Positions 1 to 27,732 of a stretch of 32,000 nt of DNA are shown here, piece by piece (position 1 is the first letter of the stretch; each line of letters starts with the position of its first letter). The notes under the pieces were generated by a model. It was not told where the DNA came from. It was given only the letters and a program-made list of their open reading frames with translations, and made no database searches. Source of the DNA: Methylomusa anaerophila (GTDB lineage: Bacteria > Bacillota > Negativicutes > Sporomusales > Sporomusaceae); NCBI RefSeq assembly GCF_003966895.1, contig NZ_AP018449.1, forward strand, positions 37,424 through 69,423, given 5' to 3'. The position numbers were made by a program, and so were the translations under genes.

Positions 1-1690
1 ATTCCAACCCGTTGACCCTGGCCTCGCCGGAATTTATGAATTGCGACACCGTTCTGCCGGCAGAATTAGTAGAGGTGCGTTTATCAATTGCGTCGGTAAC
101 TTCTGTGTGATAAATATTCAACCGGGCCAGCAAGGTTTTATCAATCTGATAATCACAGCCCAGTTCATAGTTTATGTCTTTCTCCGGCTGTAGGCCAGGA
201 TTGCTTTTATAAATTACGCCGCTGCTGCTTTCCCAGTCTTTGGCCAATTCATAGATATTCGGCGCTCTGAATGCCCTGCCGATGGAAGAACGCAAGGTCA
301 GCTTATCATTCACCTTATGAACCAATCCTAACTTAGGATTAAAGCTGTCGGCTTTTCCTTCCGGCGTATTATTGGTTACATAACTTTTTCTCGTGCTGTC
401 ATAGCCGTAAGTGTAACCGTCGTAAAAACGCCAGTCATCGTAACGGCCGCCCAGATATAGAGTGGTATTGTCCCCCAGTTTATGTTCGTCCTGGATAAAG
501 AATGACTTGGTTTCCGTCTTGCCGCCAATATTGTTGTCACTATTGGCGGTAGCGGCAGCCAAATTCCAGCCCTGGGAAGCGACGGTCAGGGTTTTGGCCA
601 GGGAATCCGATTGTTCAGACCTATAAGTATAACCGATGGTCAATAAGTCTTTGGCGCCGGCTCGGAAGTTATACTGTACTTCCGCCTGGCTGGTTTTGGA
701 CGGATTACGGGTATAAGAATAGGAAGACACATTATTGGTAGTGGAACTGTAACTTGTAGATACGTACCAGCTTTCTATTTCCTTTTCGCCATAGCTGACT
801 TTCAGAGAACTGTCGCCGCTTAATTTTCTTTCATAATTTAAAGCCCAGATATTCTCATTGCGCACGCCGCGGTCGGCAACATTCTCACTGAAATATTTAA
901 ACCGGTTGTCGCCTCCCGACAAACTTATTTTGCTGTTCTCATCCGGGTGATACACTAATTTGCCGTCATACAATTTTCTGTCCATGCCGTTTTTGCCGGG
1001 ATTTCTAGCCCTATCCGATCCCGGTATGGCGGTTTTATAGTCTTCATAAGCTTCATAGCCGTCGGCAGAAGTACCCTGCGCCGTTATGAAGTAATCCAGT
1101 TTGCCGGCGCTGCCGCTGGTAAAAATCGACCTGGTGATTGTTTCCTGGCCGCCGATGCCCAGGCGGACAATTGTTTCTTGCCTGGCTTTTTCTTTGGTGA
1201 TGATATTAATAACCCCGCCCATAGCATTAGAACCGTATAAAGCAGATGCCGGCCCTTTGATTACCTCAATTCTGTCAATATTTTCCGTAGGAATATTCGC
1301 CAGGTTGACGCCGCCGTTATAGCCGTCGTTAATCGGCTGACCATCCATCAGGATGAGGATCTGCTTCTGACTGCCAAAGCCCCGCATGGTGATCGAATCG
1401 GTGGAACCCATGAGTCCTTTAGTTTGGCGGACATAGACCCCCGGAACCGTCGTCAGGGCATCAGCCACCCGTTTAATATTTTTTTTATCCATATCCTCTT
1501 TGGTAATGACTTCTACCGCCGCCGGCACATCCTTCACCTTTTTCTCCGTTTTCGTAGCCGTAACCACCACTTGATCCAGGTCAAACGTCGGTTCCCCGTC
1601 CGCCGCCGCCCCGGCAAGGTTTACAGGAGACAGCGCCACACCTAACGTTATCGCTAAGGCAATACTTTTGTGCTCCCACTTTTTGTTCAT
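1..1690 (-). CDS. TonB-dependent outer-membrane receptor, first ~563 codons (3' end of gene lies beyond window start)
   Basis: Absent from the ORF track because the frame has no stop inside the window. Hand translation of the minus strand from ATG 1690..1688 (GGAGGG 6 nt upstream) stays open to position 2. It reads MNKKWEHKSIALAITLGVALSPVNLAGAAADGEPTFDLDQVVVTATKTEKKVKDVPAAVEVITKEDMDKKNI...IEVIKGPASALYGSNAMGGVINIITK...NPGLQPEKDINYELG..., showing a signal peptide, TonB-box/plug motifs and barrel strands. Clear paralogue of the receptor at 18227..19739. Confidence 0.9.
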   Translation of the reverse strand, partial: MNKKWEHKSIALAITLGVALSPVNLAGAAADGEPTFDLDQVVVTATKTEKKVKDVPAAVEVITKEDMDKKNIKRVADALTTVPGVYVRQTKGLMGSTDSITMRGFGSQKQILILMDGQPINDGYNGGVNLANIPTENIDRIEVIKGPASALYGSNAMGGVINIITKEKARQETIVRLGIGGQETITRSIFTSGSAGKLDYFITAQGTSADGYEAYEDYKTAIPGSDRARNPGKNGMDRKLYDGKLVYHPDENSKISLSGGDNRFKYFSENVADRGVRNENIWALNYERKLSGDSSLKVSYGEKEIESWYVSTSYSSTTNNVSSYSYTRNPSKTSQAEVQYNFRAGAKDLLTIGYTYRSEQSDSLAKTLTVASQGWNLAAATANSDNNIGGKTETKSFFIQDEHKLGDNTTLYLGGRYDDWRFYDGYTYGYDSTRKSYVTNNTPEGKADSFNPKLGLVHKVNDKLTLRSSIGRAFRAPNIYELAKDWESSSGVIYKSNPGLQPEKDINYELGCDYQIDKTLLARLNIYHTEVTDAIDKRTSTNSAGRTVSQFINSGEARVNGLE

Positions 1691-1816: not shown

Positions 1817-1879
1817 TAAAAATGCCATGAAAAATAAACATACCCGCATACTGGGACGGGTTGTTCACCTTCATGGCAT
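1817..1879 (-). terminator. Terminator-like (attenuator) hairpin inside the 5' leader of the receptor gene
   Basis: Minus strand: 5' arm ATGCCATGAA (1879..1870) and 3' arm TTCATGGCAT (1831..1822) form a perfect 10 bp stem. It encloses an inner hairpin ACCCGT/GCGGGT and is followed by TTTTAT (1821..1817). It sits about 130 nt upstream of the start codon, so it acts as an attenuator rather than an operon-end terminator. Confidence 0.5.
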
Positions 1880-1970
1880 AAATCTTTCAACAATTCAATT
1901 ATTAATTACAAATTATTATTTAAGATCCACTCGGACTCAGTGGCAGCTTCAGCTGCCGTTACTAAGTAAT

Positions 1971-1999
1971 ATCTTACACAAGCTCGGCTATTTCGTCAA
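1971..1999 (-). promoter_or_regulatory. Sigma-70-type promoter for the receptor gene leader
   Basis: Minus strand TTGACG (1999..1994), a 17-nt spacer, then TAAGAT (1976..1971). It lies in the 345-bp gap after the CobN stop and predicts a leader of about 270 nt. Confidence 0.45.
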
Positions 2000-2035: not shown

Positions 2036-3619
2036 CTATTTCGCCATTTTAGCTTTCCAGGCGGGAACGTCTTCCATTGTCAGGATATCAATCGAGCCCC
2101 CCTGGAATTCGCCGTCAATATCGCCCATCCGTTCTTCCATCCAACCTTCAATCTCCATATATGTTTCCTGTATTCCAGCCAATATCTCAGGATCTGCCTG
2201 CCAAAGGCCGCGCTGCGCCGCTTCCAGCAGCCGCCGGGTGATCTCTTCCATGGCCCAGGGACTCTGTTCTTTAAACCAGTCGCGCATTTCATGATCCAGC
2301 ACATAGGTACGGGCGATATCATCAAATATCCAGTCACCGACTGCGCCGGTGGTAGCTTCCCAGCCATAGATGCGGCCGATGCGTTTGGCCATGTCGCCCG
2401 CGCCCTTGTAGCCGTGCCGCTTCATGCCTTCAATCCAGCGGGGGTTCAGAATCTTAATCCTGACGACCCGGTTGATTTCCTCCGCCAGGCTGGTTACCTG
2501 CGCCCGTTCCGGGTCACGGGTGTCGCCATAATAGGTCTGTACTTTCTTGCCGGAAATCATCTGCGCCGCCGCAGTCAGACCGCCATAATTGGAGAAGTGG
2601 CAGCAACAGCCAAACAAATCATATTCATCGGTAGCCACTTTATTATAAGTAACGTCCACTGTTTTCAACTGATACTCAAGCTGCGGCTGAGCCTCCCTGC
2701 CGCCTCTGTCTTTGCCGTAGGCATAGCCGCTCCAGTGCAAATAGATATCCGCCAGGTCTTTTTCCGTCTTCCAGGCCGAAGCGTAAACCGCCAAACTGAC
2801 GCCGGAACCATAGGTTCCCGGTCTGCTGCCAAAAATCCGGGCTGTCGCTTGTTCCCAGTTATTTTGATTGGCAGCCAGGTTTTCCAGCGTATGCTTGCGC
2901 ACATAATTCAGGTCGGACGGTTCGTCCAACTCCGCCACAGCCCTGATGGCCTGGTCAAGAAATTCGGTAATGCCGGGAAAACAATCCCTGAGTATGCCGC
3001 TGATCTTTAACGTTACGTCAATACGGGGACGATTAAGTTCACATAAAGGAATAATCTTGAATCCGTTTATCTTACCGCCGGGCAGCCACTTGGGCTCTAC
3101 TCCGAGGAGAGCAAGAATTTGCGCTACCTGTTCCCCGTCGGTCCACATGCAATCACCGGCATTTAGTATCATGGCGCAATTTTCCGGCAGTTTTCCCGTA
3201 TCCTGCTGATTCCTGGCCAACAGCGCCGCTGCCAGTTGCCGGCCAACCCGCCAGGCGGCCTGAGTGGGAATACGGTCAGGGTCGGCGCTGTAGAAATTCC
3301 GGCCTGTCGGCATGATATCGACACGTCCCCGTGAGATCAACCCGGACGGACCGGCGCTGATATAACCGCCTTGAAACCCATGCAGCAGGCTGTCCATCTC
3401 TTTAGAAGCCGACATTCTATTATCAATATTCAGCGTCTTTTCCTGCCACAAAGCCAATTCCTCAACCTTTTCCGCATTAACCAGATATTTTCCCAATACG
3501 CGCCCGGCAATTGCCAATAAGTTGTTACCAGCGTATTCACGTTGAATAACATGCTGTTTTCCGTCAAGCACCTTATTGGCAATTTCCAACATGGCTTTAT
3601 TATCCTGGCATAAATTCAT
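2036..3619 (-). CDS. cobN: CobN-family chelatase large subunit, C-terminal segment (527 aa) of a gene split by an in-frame TAG
   Basis: The ORF-track protein is collinear with the last ~525 residues of the intact paralogue at 19825..23751 (EMDSLLHGFQGGYISAGPSG vs EMDSLLHGLEGGYIASGPSG; NPRWIEGMKRHGYKGAGDMAKR vs NPKWIEGMKRHGYKGAGDIAKR). ATG 3619 is preceded by GGGAGGGG. It is in the same frame as 3623..5977, separated only by TAG-ATT. Confidence 0.9.
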   Translation of the reverse strand: MNLCQDNKAMLEIANKVLDGKQHVIQREYAGNNLLAIAGRVLGKYLVNAEKVEELALWQEKTLNIDNRMSASKEMDSLLHGFQGGYISAGPSGLISRGRVDIMPTGRNFYSADPDRIPTQAAWRVGRQLAAALLARNQQDTGKLPENCAMILNAGDCMWTDGEQVAQILALLGVEPKWLPGGKINGFKIIPLCELNRPRIDVTLKISGILRDCFPGITEFLDQAIRAVAELDEPSDLNYVRKHTLENLAANQNNWEQATARIFGSRPGTYGSGVSLAVYASAWKTEKDLADIYLHWSGYAYGKDRGGREAQPQLEYQLKTVDVTYNKVATDEYDLFGCCCHFSNYGGLTAAAQMISGKKVQTYYGDTRDPERAQVTSLAEEINRVVRIKILNPRWIEGMKRHGYKGAGDMAKRIGRIYGWEATTGAVGDWIFDDIARTYVLDHEMRDWFKEQSPWAMEEITRRLLEAAQRGLWQADPEILAGIQETYMEIEGWMEERMGDIDGEFQGGSIDILTMEDVPAWKAKMAK

Positions 3620-3622
3620 AAT

Positions 3623-5977
3623 CTATCCCCTCCCATTCACCGTAATAAACTCACGGATAAAACTCTTGGCACAGATATGGATCTCCTGCAGCAAATCGCC
3701 GTAGGTCTTGCCAAACGCTTCATGCCAAACATGGGGCGTTTCATGCAATGCATCATAGTCTAGACCCATCAGTTCAGCTACCAAGCGACCGAATGACCGG
3801 CTTTCTTCCGTATCGTGGCGCAAAACGGAATGGATGAAGTTCACCCTTCCTTCCCCTTGAGGAATAGAGTCAAAAATATGCATGCCGTCTTGATGCATGC
3901 TGCTTTTCATGCGGTTGAGAACGGCATGGGTTTTCTCAACTATTGCCGGGAAATCTTGATTCAAATCAATTTCGACAGTCAAATTGGCCTGGGTAATCTT
4001 TTCTGCGATCAAGTGTTCCAAGGCGTTGGCCCTGGTTTTATCCTGGGTGCAGGCCTGCTGATATTCACCCAGCATAGCTGCCAAATCATCATAAGCGCCA
4101 TAGGCTGCCGTTTCCACCATTACTGTCTGCATATGCCCGACCAGTGTGGCATAGCTGCGCCGTTTGGCTATGGTTCCTTCCGCCGGATTGTCGGTATTAT
4201 AGATGTATAAATGCGGCAACGTACCCAGGGTAAGCTCAGGATAACAGCTTTCCGACAAGCCCAACGCCTTCCCGGGAAGAAATTCCAAATTGCCGTGTGT
4301 CCCGACATGAACCAACGCGTCGGCTCCCCATACATCTTCAAGATAACGATAGGTGGCGACATACTGGTGCGTTGGCGGACATTCCGGATCATGCAGGATT
4401 TTACATACCCTGCCGTCGCAGCGCGGTCCGGCGCAACCGCGTTTGGGTTGAGCGCAAATTACGGCGTTGCCGTATTCCACGCCGGTAATAAGAATATCGC
4501 CCTGATACACCATGGCGGCAGGTACTTCGTCAATTTCTTCACCGGGAGGATTTCCCCATGTGGCAGTCATGGCCTGCCGCGCTTCGGACGGAAAGCCGTT
4601 AAACCAGCGCCGGTATTCATCTGTTTTAAGGTATCGTAATACGCCGCCTTTTTGCACAATCTCCTCAATCGGCGTCCAGCGGAAATCGGAAATGGCTTTT
4701 CTGTCCATGATGGTGTGGATAAGTTCTTCGCCATTTTGGGGCAATTCCTGCAAAGAGTAGCCCTGGCTTTGCATCTCTTTCATAATCCGGGCGACACTTT
4801 CCAGGGTGTCAAGGTTAGCGCCGCCGCCGACCGATAGTTCAGCGCCGACACAAGGATTGTTATGCAAAATAAAAGCGACTTTCCGCCGATCAACCGGTTT
4901 ATTTTTAAGGTCAATCCATTTTTTCACCCGCCGGCACAAGTAACAGATGCGGCCGGCCAGCGGCCGGTGGTATTCCAGGGCGCCGCCGGTATCAGGCTGG
5001 GGCGAACGCTCCTGGCAGGCAATCACGATAGGCTCGATAACTCCGTTCATTTCCGGCATACCGACCGCCCACACCATGCTGGCGCCAGAAATGCCATACT
5101 TGTCGGCCCGCCATTCCTCTTCGGTCTTGCTGTATGTCGTCAAGCCTTTAATAATGGGCACATTCATCCGCTGCAAAAGGTCAAATCCGTCAGTATCGCC
5201 GGTTGCTCCCTGCTCAGCCGGTTTAATCAGCATCGAGGATTGCAGATCAATCAATGCATCAATCACCGGCTGCCCTTGTTGCATAAAATATTCATTGATC
5301 ACATACCGGTTGCCCAGCGATCCGGTATCGGCATCGGCGCTGCCGGTTGCAAACGCCGGCAATGCGTTCAGCCCTAAGCCATCACACTCCCGGATGATGG
5401 AATCAATAATCTCATAGTTCTTATTAATCCAGAGGCTGCGGTAGAATAAAATCCCTACCGTGGGACGTTCCGGCTGATATCCCGGGCATTTTTTCCGGTA
5501 TTCGCCGGCACTGTCCATTATTTCGTCAACACCGGGATAATAGATGCCTTGCCAGGCCAATTCCGCCGGCGGCGCTGCCTCGCAATCCTGTCCCAGCACT
5601 TCTTTCAGCACATAGAACAAAGCGCTGCGGGCGTTTTCCTCACCGCCATAGGTTAGGTATTGCTGCACAGTGAGGGCTACCGGCCCGGGTACCGTATTAT
5701 AGACTAACAAAGCAGGCGCATTGCCAAAGACAACCACCGGTATAACCGTTGATATTTCCTTTAGGTCGCCGGACATGGCCTCCCAAACGGCATTGGCATT
5801 AGCGTATATAACCAGAACATCAGCCTCCTGCCTGGCATACCGGAAGAAAGCTTCCCGGCACTCCGCCTCACCCATGTCTTTCATGCTGTAGATTTTGAGT
5901 TCCAGACCGTCGATTTCCCTGGCGGCCGCAACTAGCGCCTGCATATAGGAACCCCACATTATCGACGCAATTTTCAT
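3623..5977 (-). CDS. cobN: CobN-family chelatase large subunit, N-terminal segment (784 aa), ends at an in-frame TAG
   Basis: Collinear with residues 1 to ~790 of the intact paralogue (HNNPCVGAELSVGGGANLDTLESVARIM vs NNNPCAGTELSVGGASHLDSLESVARIM; KILHDPECPPTHQYVA in both). I chose ATG 5977 (MKIASIMWG, matching MRIAFLTWG of the paralogue) because AGAGGTG lies 6 nt upstream. The ORF-track start at 6055 has no RBS. Confidence 0.88.
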   Translation of the reverse strand: MKIASIMWGSYMQALVAAAREIDGLELKIYSMKDMGEAECREAFFRYARQEADVLVIYANANAVWEAMSGDLKEISTVIPVVVFGNAPALLVYNTVPGPVALTVQQYLTYGGEENARSALFYVLKEVLGQDCEAAPPAELAWQGIYYPGVDEIMDSAGEYRKKCPGYQPERPTVGILFYRSLWINKNYEIIDSIIRECDGLGLNALPAFATGSADADTGSLGNRYVINEYFMQQGQPVIDALIDLQSSMLIKPAEQGATGDTDGFDLLQRMNVPIIKGLTTYSKTEEEWRADKYGISGASMVWAVGMPEMNGVIEPIVIACQERSPQPDTGGALEYHRPLAGRICYLCRRVKKWIDLKNKPVDRRKVAFILHNNPCVGAELSVGGGANLDTLESVARIMKEMQSQGYSLQELPQNGEELIHTIMDRKAISDFRWTPIEEIVQKGGVLRYLKTDEYRRWFNGFPSEARQAMTATWGNPPGEEIDEVPAAMVYQGDILITGVEYGNAVICAQPKRGCAGPRCDGRVCKILHDPECPPTHQYVATYRYLEDVWGADALVHVGTHGNLEFLPGKALGLSESCYPELTLGTLPHLYIYNTDNPAEGTIAKRRSYATLVGHMQTVMVETAAYGAYDDLAAMLGEYQQACTQDKTRANALEHLIAEKITQANLTVEIDLNQDFPAIVEKTHAVLNRMKSSMHQDGMHIFDSIPQGEGRVNFIHSVLRHDTEESRSFGRLVAELMGLDYDALHETPHVWHEAFGKTYGDLLQEIHICAKSFIREFITVNGRG

Positions 5978-25600: not shown

Positions 25601-27487
25601 CTAATCCATCGCCGTCCGTTTCAAAGAATCTCCCAACCGGCAGCCTATAGCCGCCCCGATGGCACAGTAGACAAATCCGGCAGCCAGCACCGTCCAAATG
25701 TACCAGTCGGCGTAATACAGCCGGTACAACATCATGTACGCCATCATGCTCATATAGGAGGTAATGATGTCCACCACCCCGCAGACCACAGCCAGAATGA
25801 CAATGCTGAGACGGCTCCGGCAGCCTCTCCCTCTGGTAACGCCGGTAAAGAAGAGACCGGCTTCCAGAAAAACCGCCAAGGCCGCGTACAGCAAAATGTT
25901 CATCGGCGAGAAATGTCCAAAAATAAACCCGTTGAGAATAAACCTGACAACGATCATCAGGCTGACGGCTCCCGGCCTGGGCAGTACAACAGCCAAGGCT
26001 ACCATCAGCGCATACAGGACCGTTTGGCTGAAAAATCCGGTAAACAAAAAACTGAACGGACCAAAAATTACGTGAGCAATATCCATGAGTACCGTTGCCG
26101 GCAGATTAACGGTAACAAAGGTGACCGTTCCGAATAGAGCGACAATAACCATTTCCTTGCTGGACACCCGCCTGAGCGCCGACTCCTGCCGCCAAACAAA
26201 CCAACTGACGCCCAGCACCGCCACCAGCGTCATAAACAGTGTCGCATACAGGGGCTTGTTGTCATGAACGGTCAACGTCACCGGTTGTTTCGACGTGCTT
26301 ACCACCTGACTGACGCCGAATATCCTGGTTTCCGTCTGCAATTCATATTTGCCGGCGACGGCCCTATTTTCATCAAGATAAATGGGAAGAATCACCTGGT
26401 TGCTGGAATGGGCGGGTACGGCCGCTATACCGTAACTATAGCCCAGTCCGCCGTTTTTGTTTTGCGGCGCGGTAAAAGCCGGCGACATCTTGCCCGTAAC
26501 GATATCCGTCATTTTGGCCGTGACCAAGGCTAAAACCTGTTGATCACCGTCGTTGCTGATTCTTATGGCGGCAAAAGTAAGCGGATCTTCATCAAAACGC
26601 CGGTCTTCGCGTTCCCCTGTAAAAAACTGCAACAAACGGCTGGGCGGCTGATAGGCCAGAGCACCCGTCTGAACTTTCGGCTCCAGGCGGCCGGAAGCAT
26701 CCACCGGCAAGTCGACTTTGGCAACCTTGACATTATTGCTGATGTCGGCGAGGGAAGAGATTTGGATTACCGCCTGTTTGTCCCATTCCCGCTGTTCCCG
26801 GCCATTATCCAAATGCAAGCGGGCGGTTATCGTTGCCTTCCGCCCCGCTTCACCGGCTTTTACTTGGATCTGTTCATTCCATATCTCGTTTTCCGCCGTC
26901 AGACTGGCCGGTCCGAGCACATGGTTTACGCCATCGCGCCGTTCCAGTCTCATGACGGGAGGAACGGCTGCCACTTCAAGCTCAGGCGGAATGGAAACAT
27001 CCAAGATCCCGCCAACCTTTTGATCAGCATGATTGGTGATCAGAAGGTTAATGGCAAAAGTACTGCCATTGGTAACCAGACCCACATTTTCCTCGCTGTT
27101 TAGCCCATAGGGAGCTTGCAGAAAAAATGATATTGTCGCCGGCGGCTTGTCCGGGCTCCTGGCAGACAAGCGGATCTTGCCGCCGTCCCGCAGGCAAATC
27201 TCAAACTCATATTCATGCCCCGGCCTCCAGGGAATAAACACTGGGAGGACTTTATGACCGCCTGGTCCCGTATCGCTGGCGATAACCGTTTCCCCCGGCT
27301 TATCCCTGACGCGGATTTGCCTTATTTGCTGCTCCCGGTCAAATGTAATTTCGACTCCCTGCCGGGTAAACTCAATCTGTCCCCCCGGCGCTTCCTGCCC
27401 GGCTCCCAACAGCCGCCAGGCGCCATAGACCAGACCAATGACCAGCAATACGAGGCCAAATTTCTGCAACTTGTTATAGTGGGGCAA
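25601..27487 (-). CDS. 628-aa membrane protein: N-terminal anchor, ~400-aa extracytoplasmic region, C-terminal ~7-TM domain
   Basis: The only possible in-frame start is TTG 27487 (a TAA lies 18 nt upstream in frame). Hydrophobic segments are FGLVLLVIGLVYGAW at the N-terminus and six to seven from residue ~415 to the end. No family is recognised with certainty. Confidence 0.75.
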   Translation of the reverse strand: MPHYNKLQKFGLVLLVIGLVYGAWRLLGAGQEAPGGQIEFTRQGVEITFDREQQIRQIRVRDKPGETVIASDTGPGGHKVLPVFIPWRPGHEYEFEICLRDGGKIRLSARSPDKPPATISFFLQAPYGLNSEENVGLVTNGSTFAINLLITNHADQKVGGILDVSIPPELEVAAVPPVMRLERRDGVNHVLGPASLTAENEIWNEQIQVKAGEAGRKATITARLHLDNGREQREWDKQAVIQISSLADISNNVKVAKVDLPVDASGRLEPKVQTGALAYQPPSRLLQFFTGEREDRRFDEDPLTFAAIRISNDGDQQVLALVTAKMTDIVTGKMSPAFTAPQNKNGGLGYSYGIAAVPAHSSNQVILPIYLDENRAVAGKYELQTETRIFGVSQVVSTSKQPVTLTVHDNKPLYATLFMTLVAVLGVSWFVWRQESALRRVSSKEMVIVALFGTVTFVTVNLPATVLMDIAHVIFGPFSFLFTGFFSQTVLYALMVALAVVLPRPGAVSLMIVVRFILNGFIFGHFSPMNILLYAALAVFLEAGLFFTGVTRGRGCRSRLSIVILAVVCGVVDIITSYMSMMAYMMLYRLYYADWYIWTVLAAGFVYCAIGAAIGCRLGDSLKRTAMD

Positions 27488-27515
27488 ATGCCAACACCAT
27501 CCTTACTAACGATTG

Positions 27516-27576
27516 AAAAAAACCATGAAGAATTGCCGGACGCTGCGCCGCCAGCACCGGTCAATAACCTTCATGG
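27516..27576 (-). terminator. Terminator-like/attenuator hairpin upstream of the 628-aa gene
   Basis: Minus strand: CCATGAAG (27576..27569) pairs with CTTCATGG (27530..27523). Nested inside are CCGG/CCGG and GCTG/CAGC pairs. It is followed by TTTTTTT (27522..27516) and ends 28 nt before the TTG start. Confidence 0.55.
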
Positions 27577-27644
27577 CTACTGTTTTATAAATTCATGTTA
27601 ACTTTGCTGCTCTTAAACAGACAAATATATGGTATTCCACATTC

Positions 27645-27690
27645 ATAGGGAAATCCATAAGGAAATTCATAAAGAAATCCAAAGAAATCC
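27645..27690. repeat. Tandem imperfect 12-mer repeat (ATARRGAAATYC), three full units plus one 10-nt unit
   Basis: ATAGGGAAATCC, ATAAGGAAATTC, ATAAAGAAATCC and AAAGAAATCC are read directly head to tail. Confidence 0.85.
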
Positions 27691-27732
27691 ATTGTTAATT
27701 GTTAATTGTTAATTGTTAATTGTTAATTGTTA
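27691..27732. repeat. Perfect tandem heptamer repeat (ATTGTTA) x6
   Basis: Six exact copies that end one base before the stop codon (27733..27735) of the ABC-2 permease. Confidence 0.95.

Follow-up and report, generated by a model that had tools for sequence, protein, structure and literature searches.

Two long hairpins on the minus strand of the window (the whole 32,000-nt stretch that was analyzed, positions 37424-69423 of a 4.78-Mb genome) are, with a probability that we put at roughly 0.55, copies of a conserved attenuator that would terminate transcription by default and be opened by a trans-acting factor binding NGAA loops. Leaders of the same type precede a set of genes whose content looks like a regulon for the uptake of nickel, cobalt or metal chelates (metal-tetrapyrroles). 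The attenuator family is previously undescribed in the sources searched: Rfam 15 returned no relevant match at gathering thresholds or at E ≤ 10 for both window gaps, their flanks and three foreign leaders, and the motif was not described in the literature on DUF3842, Sporomusa riboswitches or nickel riboswitches. The Term-seq tables of Sporomusa sphaeroides KIAC list many "Novel" cis-regulatory units (PMC12456013).

The 11-mer GCCATGAAGGT is present in exactly two copies in the window, at 1867-1877(-) (site B) and at 27567-27577(-) (site A). Both had been described by the sequence-only reading as the 5' arm of a long hairpin with a U-run behind it, and this description was borne out by folding. 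At site B, the hairpin at 1879-1822 is followed by a U5 run at 1821-1817 (1817..1879, minus strand; -30 kcal/mol, z -3.7), and at site A, the hairpin at 27578-27522 is followed by a U7 run at 27521-27515 (27515..27578, minus strand; -32 kcal/mol, z -4.4). Each is a stable stem-loop directly followed by a U-run, the arrangement of an intrinsic (Rho-independent) terminator.

A gap of 345 nt, flanked by a CobN-type gene and a TonB-dependent receptor gene (2..1690, minus strand, running past the window end; Plug and TonB_dep_Rec_b-barrel domains), contains site B; the receptor gene starts with a Shine-Dalgarno sequence GGAGGG at 1702-1697 and an ATG at 1690. The placement of site B in the receptor leader was confirmed, since the terminator stands between a sigma-70-like promoter (1971..1999, minus strand; TTGACG-17 nt-TAAGAT) and the receptor gene, and similar promoters were present in paralogous leaders. 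We infer that the receptor gene is controlled by site B. A first hairpin, H1 (1942..1957, minus strand; GGCAGC-UGAA-GCUGCC), is placed approximately 8 nt past the predicted transcript start, and a mini-hairpin, P3 (1866..1878, minus strand; (U)GCC-AUGAA-GGU(G)), encloses the 11-mer at 1867-1877 and is predicted to form when the 3' arm is blocked. The promoter spacers of paralogous leaders (for example L028:1370-1400, L032, L052, L054 and L056) have AAGTGAAATTTGG in common, or TTGTGAAAAA in others; they recall the operators of Rex-type regulators, and control at the DNA level may be added as a second layer at the leader promoters. A CobN-type chelatase gene in the window (3617-3625(-)) is split by an in-frame TAG at 3625-3623, with ATT ATG directly after it in the same frame and GGGAGGGGA just upstream. 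Possible explanations are a gene that is naturally in two pieces with coupled restart, a recent nonsense mutation, or read-through.

An ABC-2 permease gene and a gene for a 628-aa membrane protein without a Pfam match (25601..27487, minus strand) flank site A, and the hairpin does end about 28 nt upstream of the start of this ORF (27487), as had been read from the sequence. Orthologs of the 628-aa protein in two other Sporomusaceae genomes have the same hairpin upstream; a search for related loci using the 628-aa protein as the query found nothing. The site A P3 (27562..27582, minus strand; CAGUAGCC-AUGAA-GGUUAUUG, 8 bp) encloses the 11-mer at 27567-27577. Further upstream is an H1-like hairpin (27637..27650, minus strand; CCCUA-UGAA-UGUGG) with one C.U mismatch; it is degenerate, yet its AUGAAUGUGGAAUA sequence is kept in a Sporomusa ortholog (L051), where UUUACA-UGAA-UGUGGA stands at the matching position. 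No convincing promoter was found in the site A gap, in which the only promoter-like matches fall inside a heptamer array. Tandem repeats, (CAATTAA)x6 and a ~12-mer x4, occupy window positions 27645-27732, from the permease stop to the H1-like hairpin. With its degenerate H1 and no good promoter, site A is a weaker case than site B, and it may attenuate the operon upstream of it from an internal position.

The 11-mer repeat was not significant inside the window alone, as 15 of 100 shuffles gave at least two matches (≤ 1 mismatch), and its significance derives instead from whole-genome counts. Genome-wide, 8 copies were found versus 4 of the reversed control, and a hairpin of the same type was present at five of the eight (39300, 65000, 79339, 140192 and 899801). 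The arm pair GCCATGAAG...CTTCATGGC, with at most one mismatch per arm, was found at 9 genomic sites versus 3 for the control. A sixth hairpin, with the stem base GCCATGAAGAT..., lies at genome position 37009, directly after the receptor stop codon. When the genome was scanned for the design xyz-AYGAA-z'y'x' with a matching 3' arm and a T-run, 20 matches were obtained versus 6-18 for three control cores, and an NGAA-loop hairpin was found upstream at 8 of these sites versus 0-2 for the controls. Approximately 13 members in the genome were considered convincing, 10 of them at 21-150 kb. With this genome-wide family in hand, the two window hairpins can be regarded as related cis-regulatory terminator elements and not as a chance repeat. 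They are not the locus-specific element that had been suggested, given that the motif was found across the genome, the family Sporomusaceae and the class. The whole-element conservation and function-blind spread of REP- or MITE-like repeats were not seen, and the motif is restricted to genes of a single functional set.

Most copies sit in leaders of ~130 nt consisting of a promoter, H1, often a second hairpin (H2), a variable linker and the terminator. H1 is a 5' hairpin with an NGAA loop (leader hairpins have UGAA, CGAA, AGAA or AUGAA loops) and is located 42-90 nt upstream of the terminator arm; H2 is frequent, for example as CCGU-GUGAAGU-ACGG or GCAGU-CGAA-ACUGC, and the linkers vary from 20 to 70 nt. 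Conservation in the terminator is limited to the stem base, and hairpin interiors are unrelated. Two covariance models were used, one of the stem base (R1) and one of the full leader (R2). Across 41 distinct leaders aligned to R2, all 6 pairs of H1 and 5 of the 11 terminator pairs were changed on both sides; 98% of cells were paired, and the observed values were reached by 0 of 500 shuffles and not approached by slid registers, in alignments that were fitted to the covariance model itself. The most enriched 5-mer in the leaders was UGAAG (76 observed versus 9.2 expected), and NGAA-loop hairpins averaged 1.6 per leader versus 0.43 in shuffles.

The 5' arm of the terminator follows the pattern xyz-AYGAA-z'y'x' (consensus RCC-AUGAA-GGY) and can either pair with the 3' arm or fold on itself as P3, a mini-hairpin with an AUGAA loop, so that the two predicted folds are mutually exclusive. 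This arm is invariant even where the 3' arm has mismatches and is therefore constrained beyond pairing. The flanks of AYGAA are self-complementary, which is not needed by a plain terminator, and they covary across 69 distinct members (position 1: C-G 54, U-A 7, U-G 5; position 2: C-G 52, G-C 10), with the observed count reached by 0 of 5000 shuffles at either position. Within the CCAYGAAGG sub-family alone the covariation did not reach significance, since its flanks hardly vary, and significance was obtained only with other sub-families added. The P3 covariation rests on few sub-families, and shared descent could be part of its cause. P3 was present in the predicted fold of most leaders when these were truncated before the 3' arm. 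At site A it reaches -8.7 kcal/mol alone with 8 bp, and the alternative state is predicted at -23.3 versus -32 kcal/mol for the terminator; at site B it is weak (-1.9 kcal/mol, 3 bp), and the alternative state is predicted at -14 versus -30 kcal/mol. No upstream antiterminator strand complementary to the 5' arm was found by eye or in folds. The inverted repeat was also considered as a DNA-level operator, and this was rejected because the spacing between the arms varies from 10 to 40 nt.

Relatives in the family of this genome, the Sporomusaceae (among them Sporomusa acidovorans, S. silvacetica and S. ovata), had R1 matches in 18 of 20 genomes, clustered in homologous gene islands. R2 matches were obtained in 14 of 151 sampled Negativicutes genomes, including members of families f1, f2, f23, f24 and f27, with doubtful matches in f10. 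In one Dehalobacter genome, three leaders follow this design as well. Tandem motif terminators 60-160 nt apart were observed in two Sporomusaceae genomes, at L053:4975-5105 (G019) and L050:4210-4438 (G007), where they stand before orthologs of window genes.

A search of the genome and its relatives, with the following genes recorded, had been proposed as a check on the motif, and it returned a functionally coherent set of genes. Downstream of the motif in this genome are TonB receptors (39.3 and 140.2 kb), NikA/NikB-type ABC operons (21.5 and 95.4 kb), NikMN (CbiM+PDGLE; 140.6 kb), a Rex-like protein with a methyltransferase (28.5 kb), DUF3842 (899.8 kb), the 628-aa protein and an AraC regulator. 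An ExbB-TonB operon at 79.3 kb is also downstream of the motif and is now interrupted by a group II intron. The intron (L017:7921-9783; genome 77.3-79.2 kb, plus strand) has an ORF for a reverse transcriptase and maturase and a domain matched by Rfam Intron_gpII; it lies ~100 nt downstream of motif copy 79339 and separates the leader from the presumed ExbB-TonB target genes. A CRISPR array (L016:37-404; genome 25.0-25.4 kb; CRISPR-DR2, at least six repeats) adjoins the metal-uptake island. In relatives, DUF3842 was downstream of the leader in 9 of 10 cases tested in one set, and other motif-preceded genes encode ExbB, SBP_bac_5, BPD_transp_1, CobN and beta-propeller lipoproteins, as well as a methyltransferase accompanied by FmdE or CGGC proteins.

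The organisms concerned, acetogens and organohalide respirers, have a heavy demand for nickel and cobalt. Neither this genome nor any of seven sampled Sporomusaceae gave a NikR_C match (0/7), and NikR is rare among the sampled Negativicutes (10/151). The cobalamin riboswitch (RF00174) had 15 genomic matches, none at motif sites and none in the window or its flanks; the NiCo riboswitch (RF02683) had a single genomic match, at 3.36 Mb, and none in the window. This gene content, in genomes that gave no NikR match, points to nickel, cobalt or metal-tetrapyrrole supply as the putative signal. Two motif-associated proteins were considered as the trans factor and rejected. DUF3842 is far more widespread than the motif (67/151 genomes), and outside Sporomusa its upstream regions are without the leader. 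Extra copies of the Rex-like protein were restricted to Sporomusaceae, and in family f24, where the motif is present, the query used gave no Rex match. These extra paralogs (48-53% identical) are themselves preceded by the leader.

We propose that the terminator forms by default, as its stability exceeds that of the alternative fold by 9-16 kcal/mol, and the P3 alternative would therefore need stabilization from outside. In the open state, the 5' arm RCC-AUGAA-GGY would fold on itself into P3 and display its AUGAA loop; the 3' arm and the U-run would be left unpaired, and RNA polymerase would continue into the gene. Upstream, H1 and H2 would display the same NGAA loop, and a putative trans-acting factor that recognizes the loops of H1, H2 and P3 would hold P3 closed and so bring about antitermination. 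This factor is most likely an RNA-binding protein and less likely a small ligand or metal bridging the loops. A protein is favored because the conserved positions are terminal loops, and because a metal that stabilized P3 would give the wrong sign, with uptake turned on when the metal is abundant.

The mechanism proposed here would work by analogy with ANTAR antitermination. The targets of the ANTAR proteins EutV, NasR and AmiR have a recruitment hairpin and a second small hairpin made within the terminator 5' arm; stabilization of the second hairpin blocks termination, and conserved terminal loops carry the specificity (PMC8934654). Both hairpins end in a hexaloop whose first position is A and whose fourth is G, and they must be joined by a short linker (PMC8934654). 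As in those targets, P3 is made of the terminator 5' arm, so that the second hairpin overlaps the terminator. Unlike them, the motif has tetra- or pentaloops of the NGAA type (in CUGAAG, taken as a hexaloop, position 1 is C and position 4 is A), the linkers are 20-70 nt long and variable, and a third hairpin is often present. Identity with ANTAR targets was rejected on the loop and linker rules, and the genome has a single ANTAR gene, which at 3.27 Mb is distant from the motif loci.

An unlikely explanation is that the hairpins are unswitched constitutive terminators or 5' stabilizing hairpins, whose likeness arose from duplicated operons or gene conversion in one island. The islands do contain paralogous modules, and some members at gene 3' ends (genome 37009, L054:753) resemble ordinary terminators, which counts against the attenuator reading. 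The ortholog in G019 of the hairpin after the receptor stop (L054:753-818) keeps GCCAUGAAGG...CUUCAUGGC and has no U-run; because the U-run is absent, its stem base appears to be kept for a reason other than termination. An ordinary Rho-independent terminator shares with the motif a stable hairpin and a following U-run. In contrast to such terminators, the motif has a stem-base sequence that is conserved across genera in 5' leaders and an alternative predicted fold, and it is tied to one regulon. Copying within an island fits poorly with a stem base that alone is conserved around an unrelated interior, and with retention of the motif across families and in Dehalobacter before non-homologous genes. 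The 5' arm is also constrained more than pairing explains. Finally, a strong terminator between a promoter and a gene would silence that gene, so that a terminator of -30 kcal/mol in this position, before the first gene, needs a way of read-through.

The NGAA loops of H1, H2 and P3 might instead contact one another around a metal ion or small ligand and stabilize P3 without any protein, a riboswitch reading that we regard as doubtful. The contacts might be, for example, U-A pairs with tandem G.A pairs, by analogy with the ACGR loops of guanidine-II. The guanidine-II (mini-ykkC) riboswitch, which acts on translation, consists of simple tandem hairpins that share an identical conserved ACGR loop and are joined by a linker of variable length. 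The motif resembles it in its two or three simple hairpins, which likewise share one conserved loop and are spaced by variable linkers, but its loops are NGAA and not ACGR, and no Rfam match was obtained at E ≤ 10. Conserved nucleotides inside the terminator stem are a feature of the HMP-PP (thiS) riboswitch, a terminator-embedded aptamer, and are likewise present in the motif, although the motif sequence and regulon differ and no Rfam match was found. A regulon centered on metal uptake fits a riboswitch, and no co-distributed protein was found, as neither DUF3842 nor the Rex paralogs track the motif. Against this reading are the wrong sign of a P3-stabilizing ligand for a metal, noted above, and the lack of a conserved junction or pocket. 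A protein-free sensor, whose ligand could be a metal ion or a tetrapyrrole with or without bound metal, is an improbable case; if true, it would be a new riboswitch class for nickel/cobalt and TonB-dependent uptake genes and a metal-uptake regulator in Negativicutes where NikR was not found.

It is quite improbable that the units are genes for small RNAs of ~130 nt whose exposed UGAAG loops pair with CUUCA targets and from which read-through is incidental. The units are complete, with promoter, hairpins and terminator, and the enrichment of UGAAG would suit such a role; on the other hand, they always have the sense orientation and stand immediately before genes that form a functionally coherent set, and no target set was identified.

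Attenuation by a leader peptide, in which translation of an M-K-V mini-ORF through the hairpin would control termination, can practically be set aside. ATG-started frames do run through both window hairpins as the sequence-only reading gave them, but the Shine-Dalgarno sequence that it had already found wanting is absent from all 51 distinct members (0/51), 10 of the 51 have ACG in place of ATG, compensated by CGU in the 3' arm, and the frames range from 3 to > 38 codons and encode unrelated peptides with only M/T-K-(V/A/P) in common. The conserved, translatable ORF and ribosome-binding site of a leader-peptide attenuator were not found. M-K-V is AUG-AAG-GUN read from the conserved RCC-AUGAA-GGY, and the frame arises as a by-product of this conserved sequence.

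For the Sporomusaceae, the attenuator that we favor bears on how metal uptake is organized. The genomes that gave no NikR match nevertheless have numerous Nik-type, NikMN, TonB-dependent and CobN-type chelatase clusters of unexplained role. The ~130-nt element is a compact test object for a new RNA-binding antiterminator or riboswitch. A shared RNA switch would define a regulon and would place CobN-like chelatases, DUF3842, the 628-aa protein and the beta-propeller lipoproteins under one signal.
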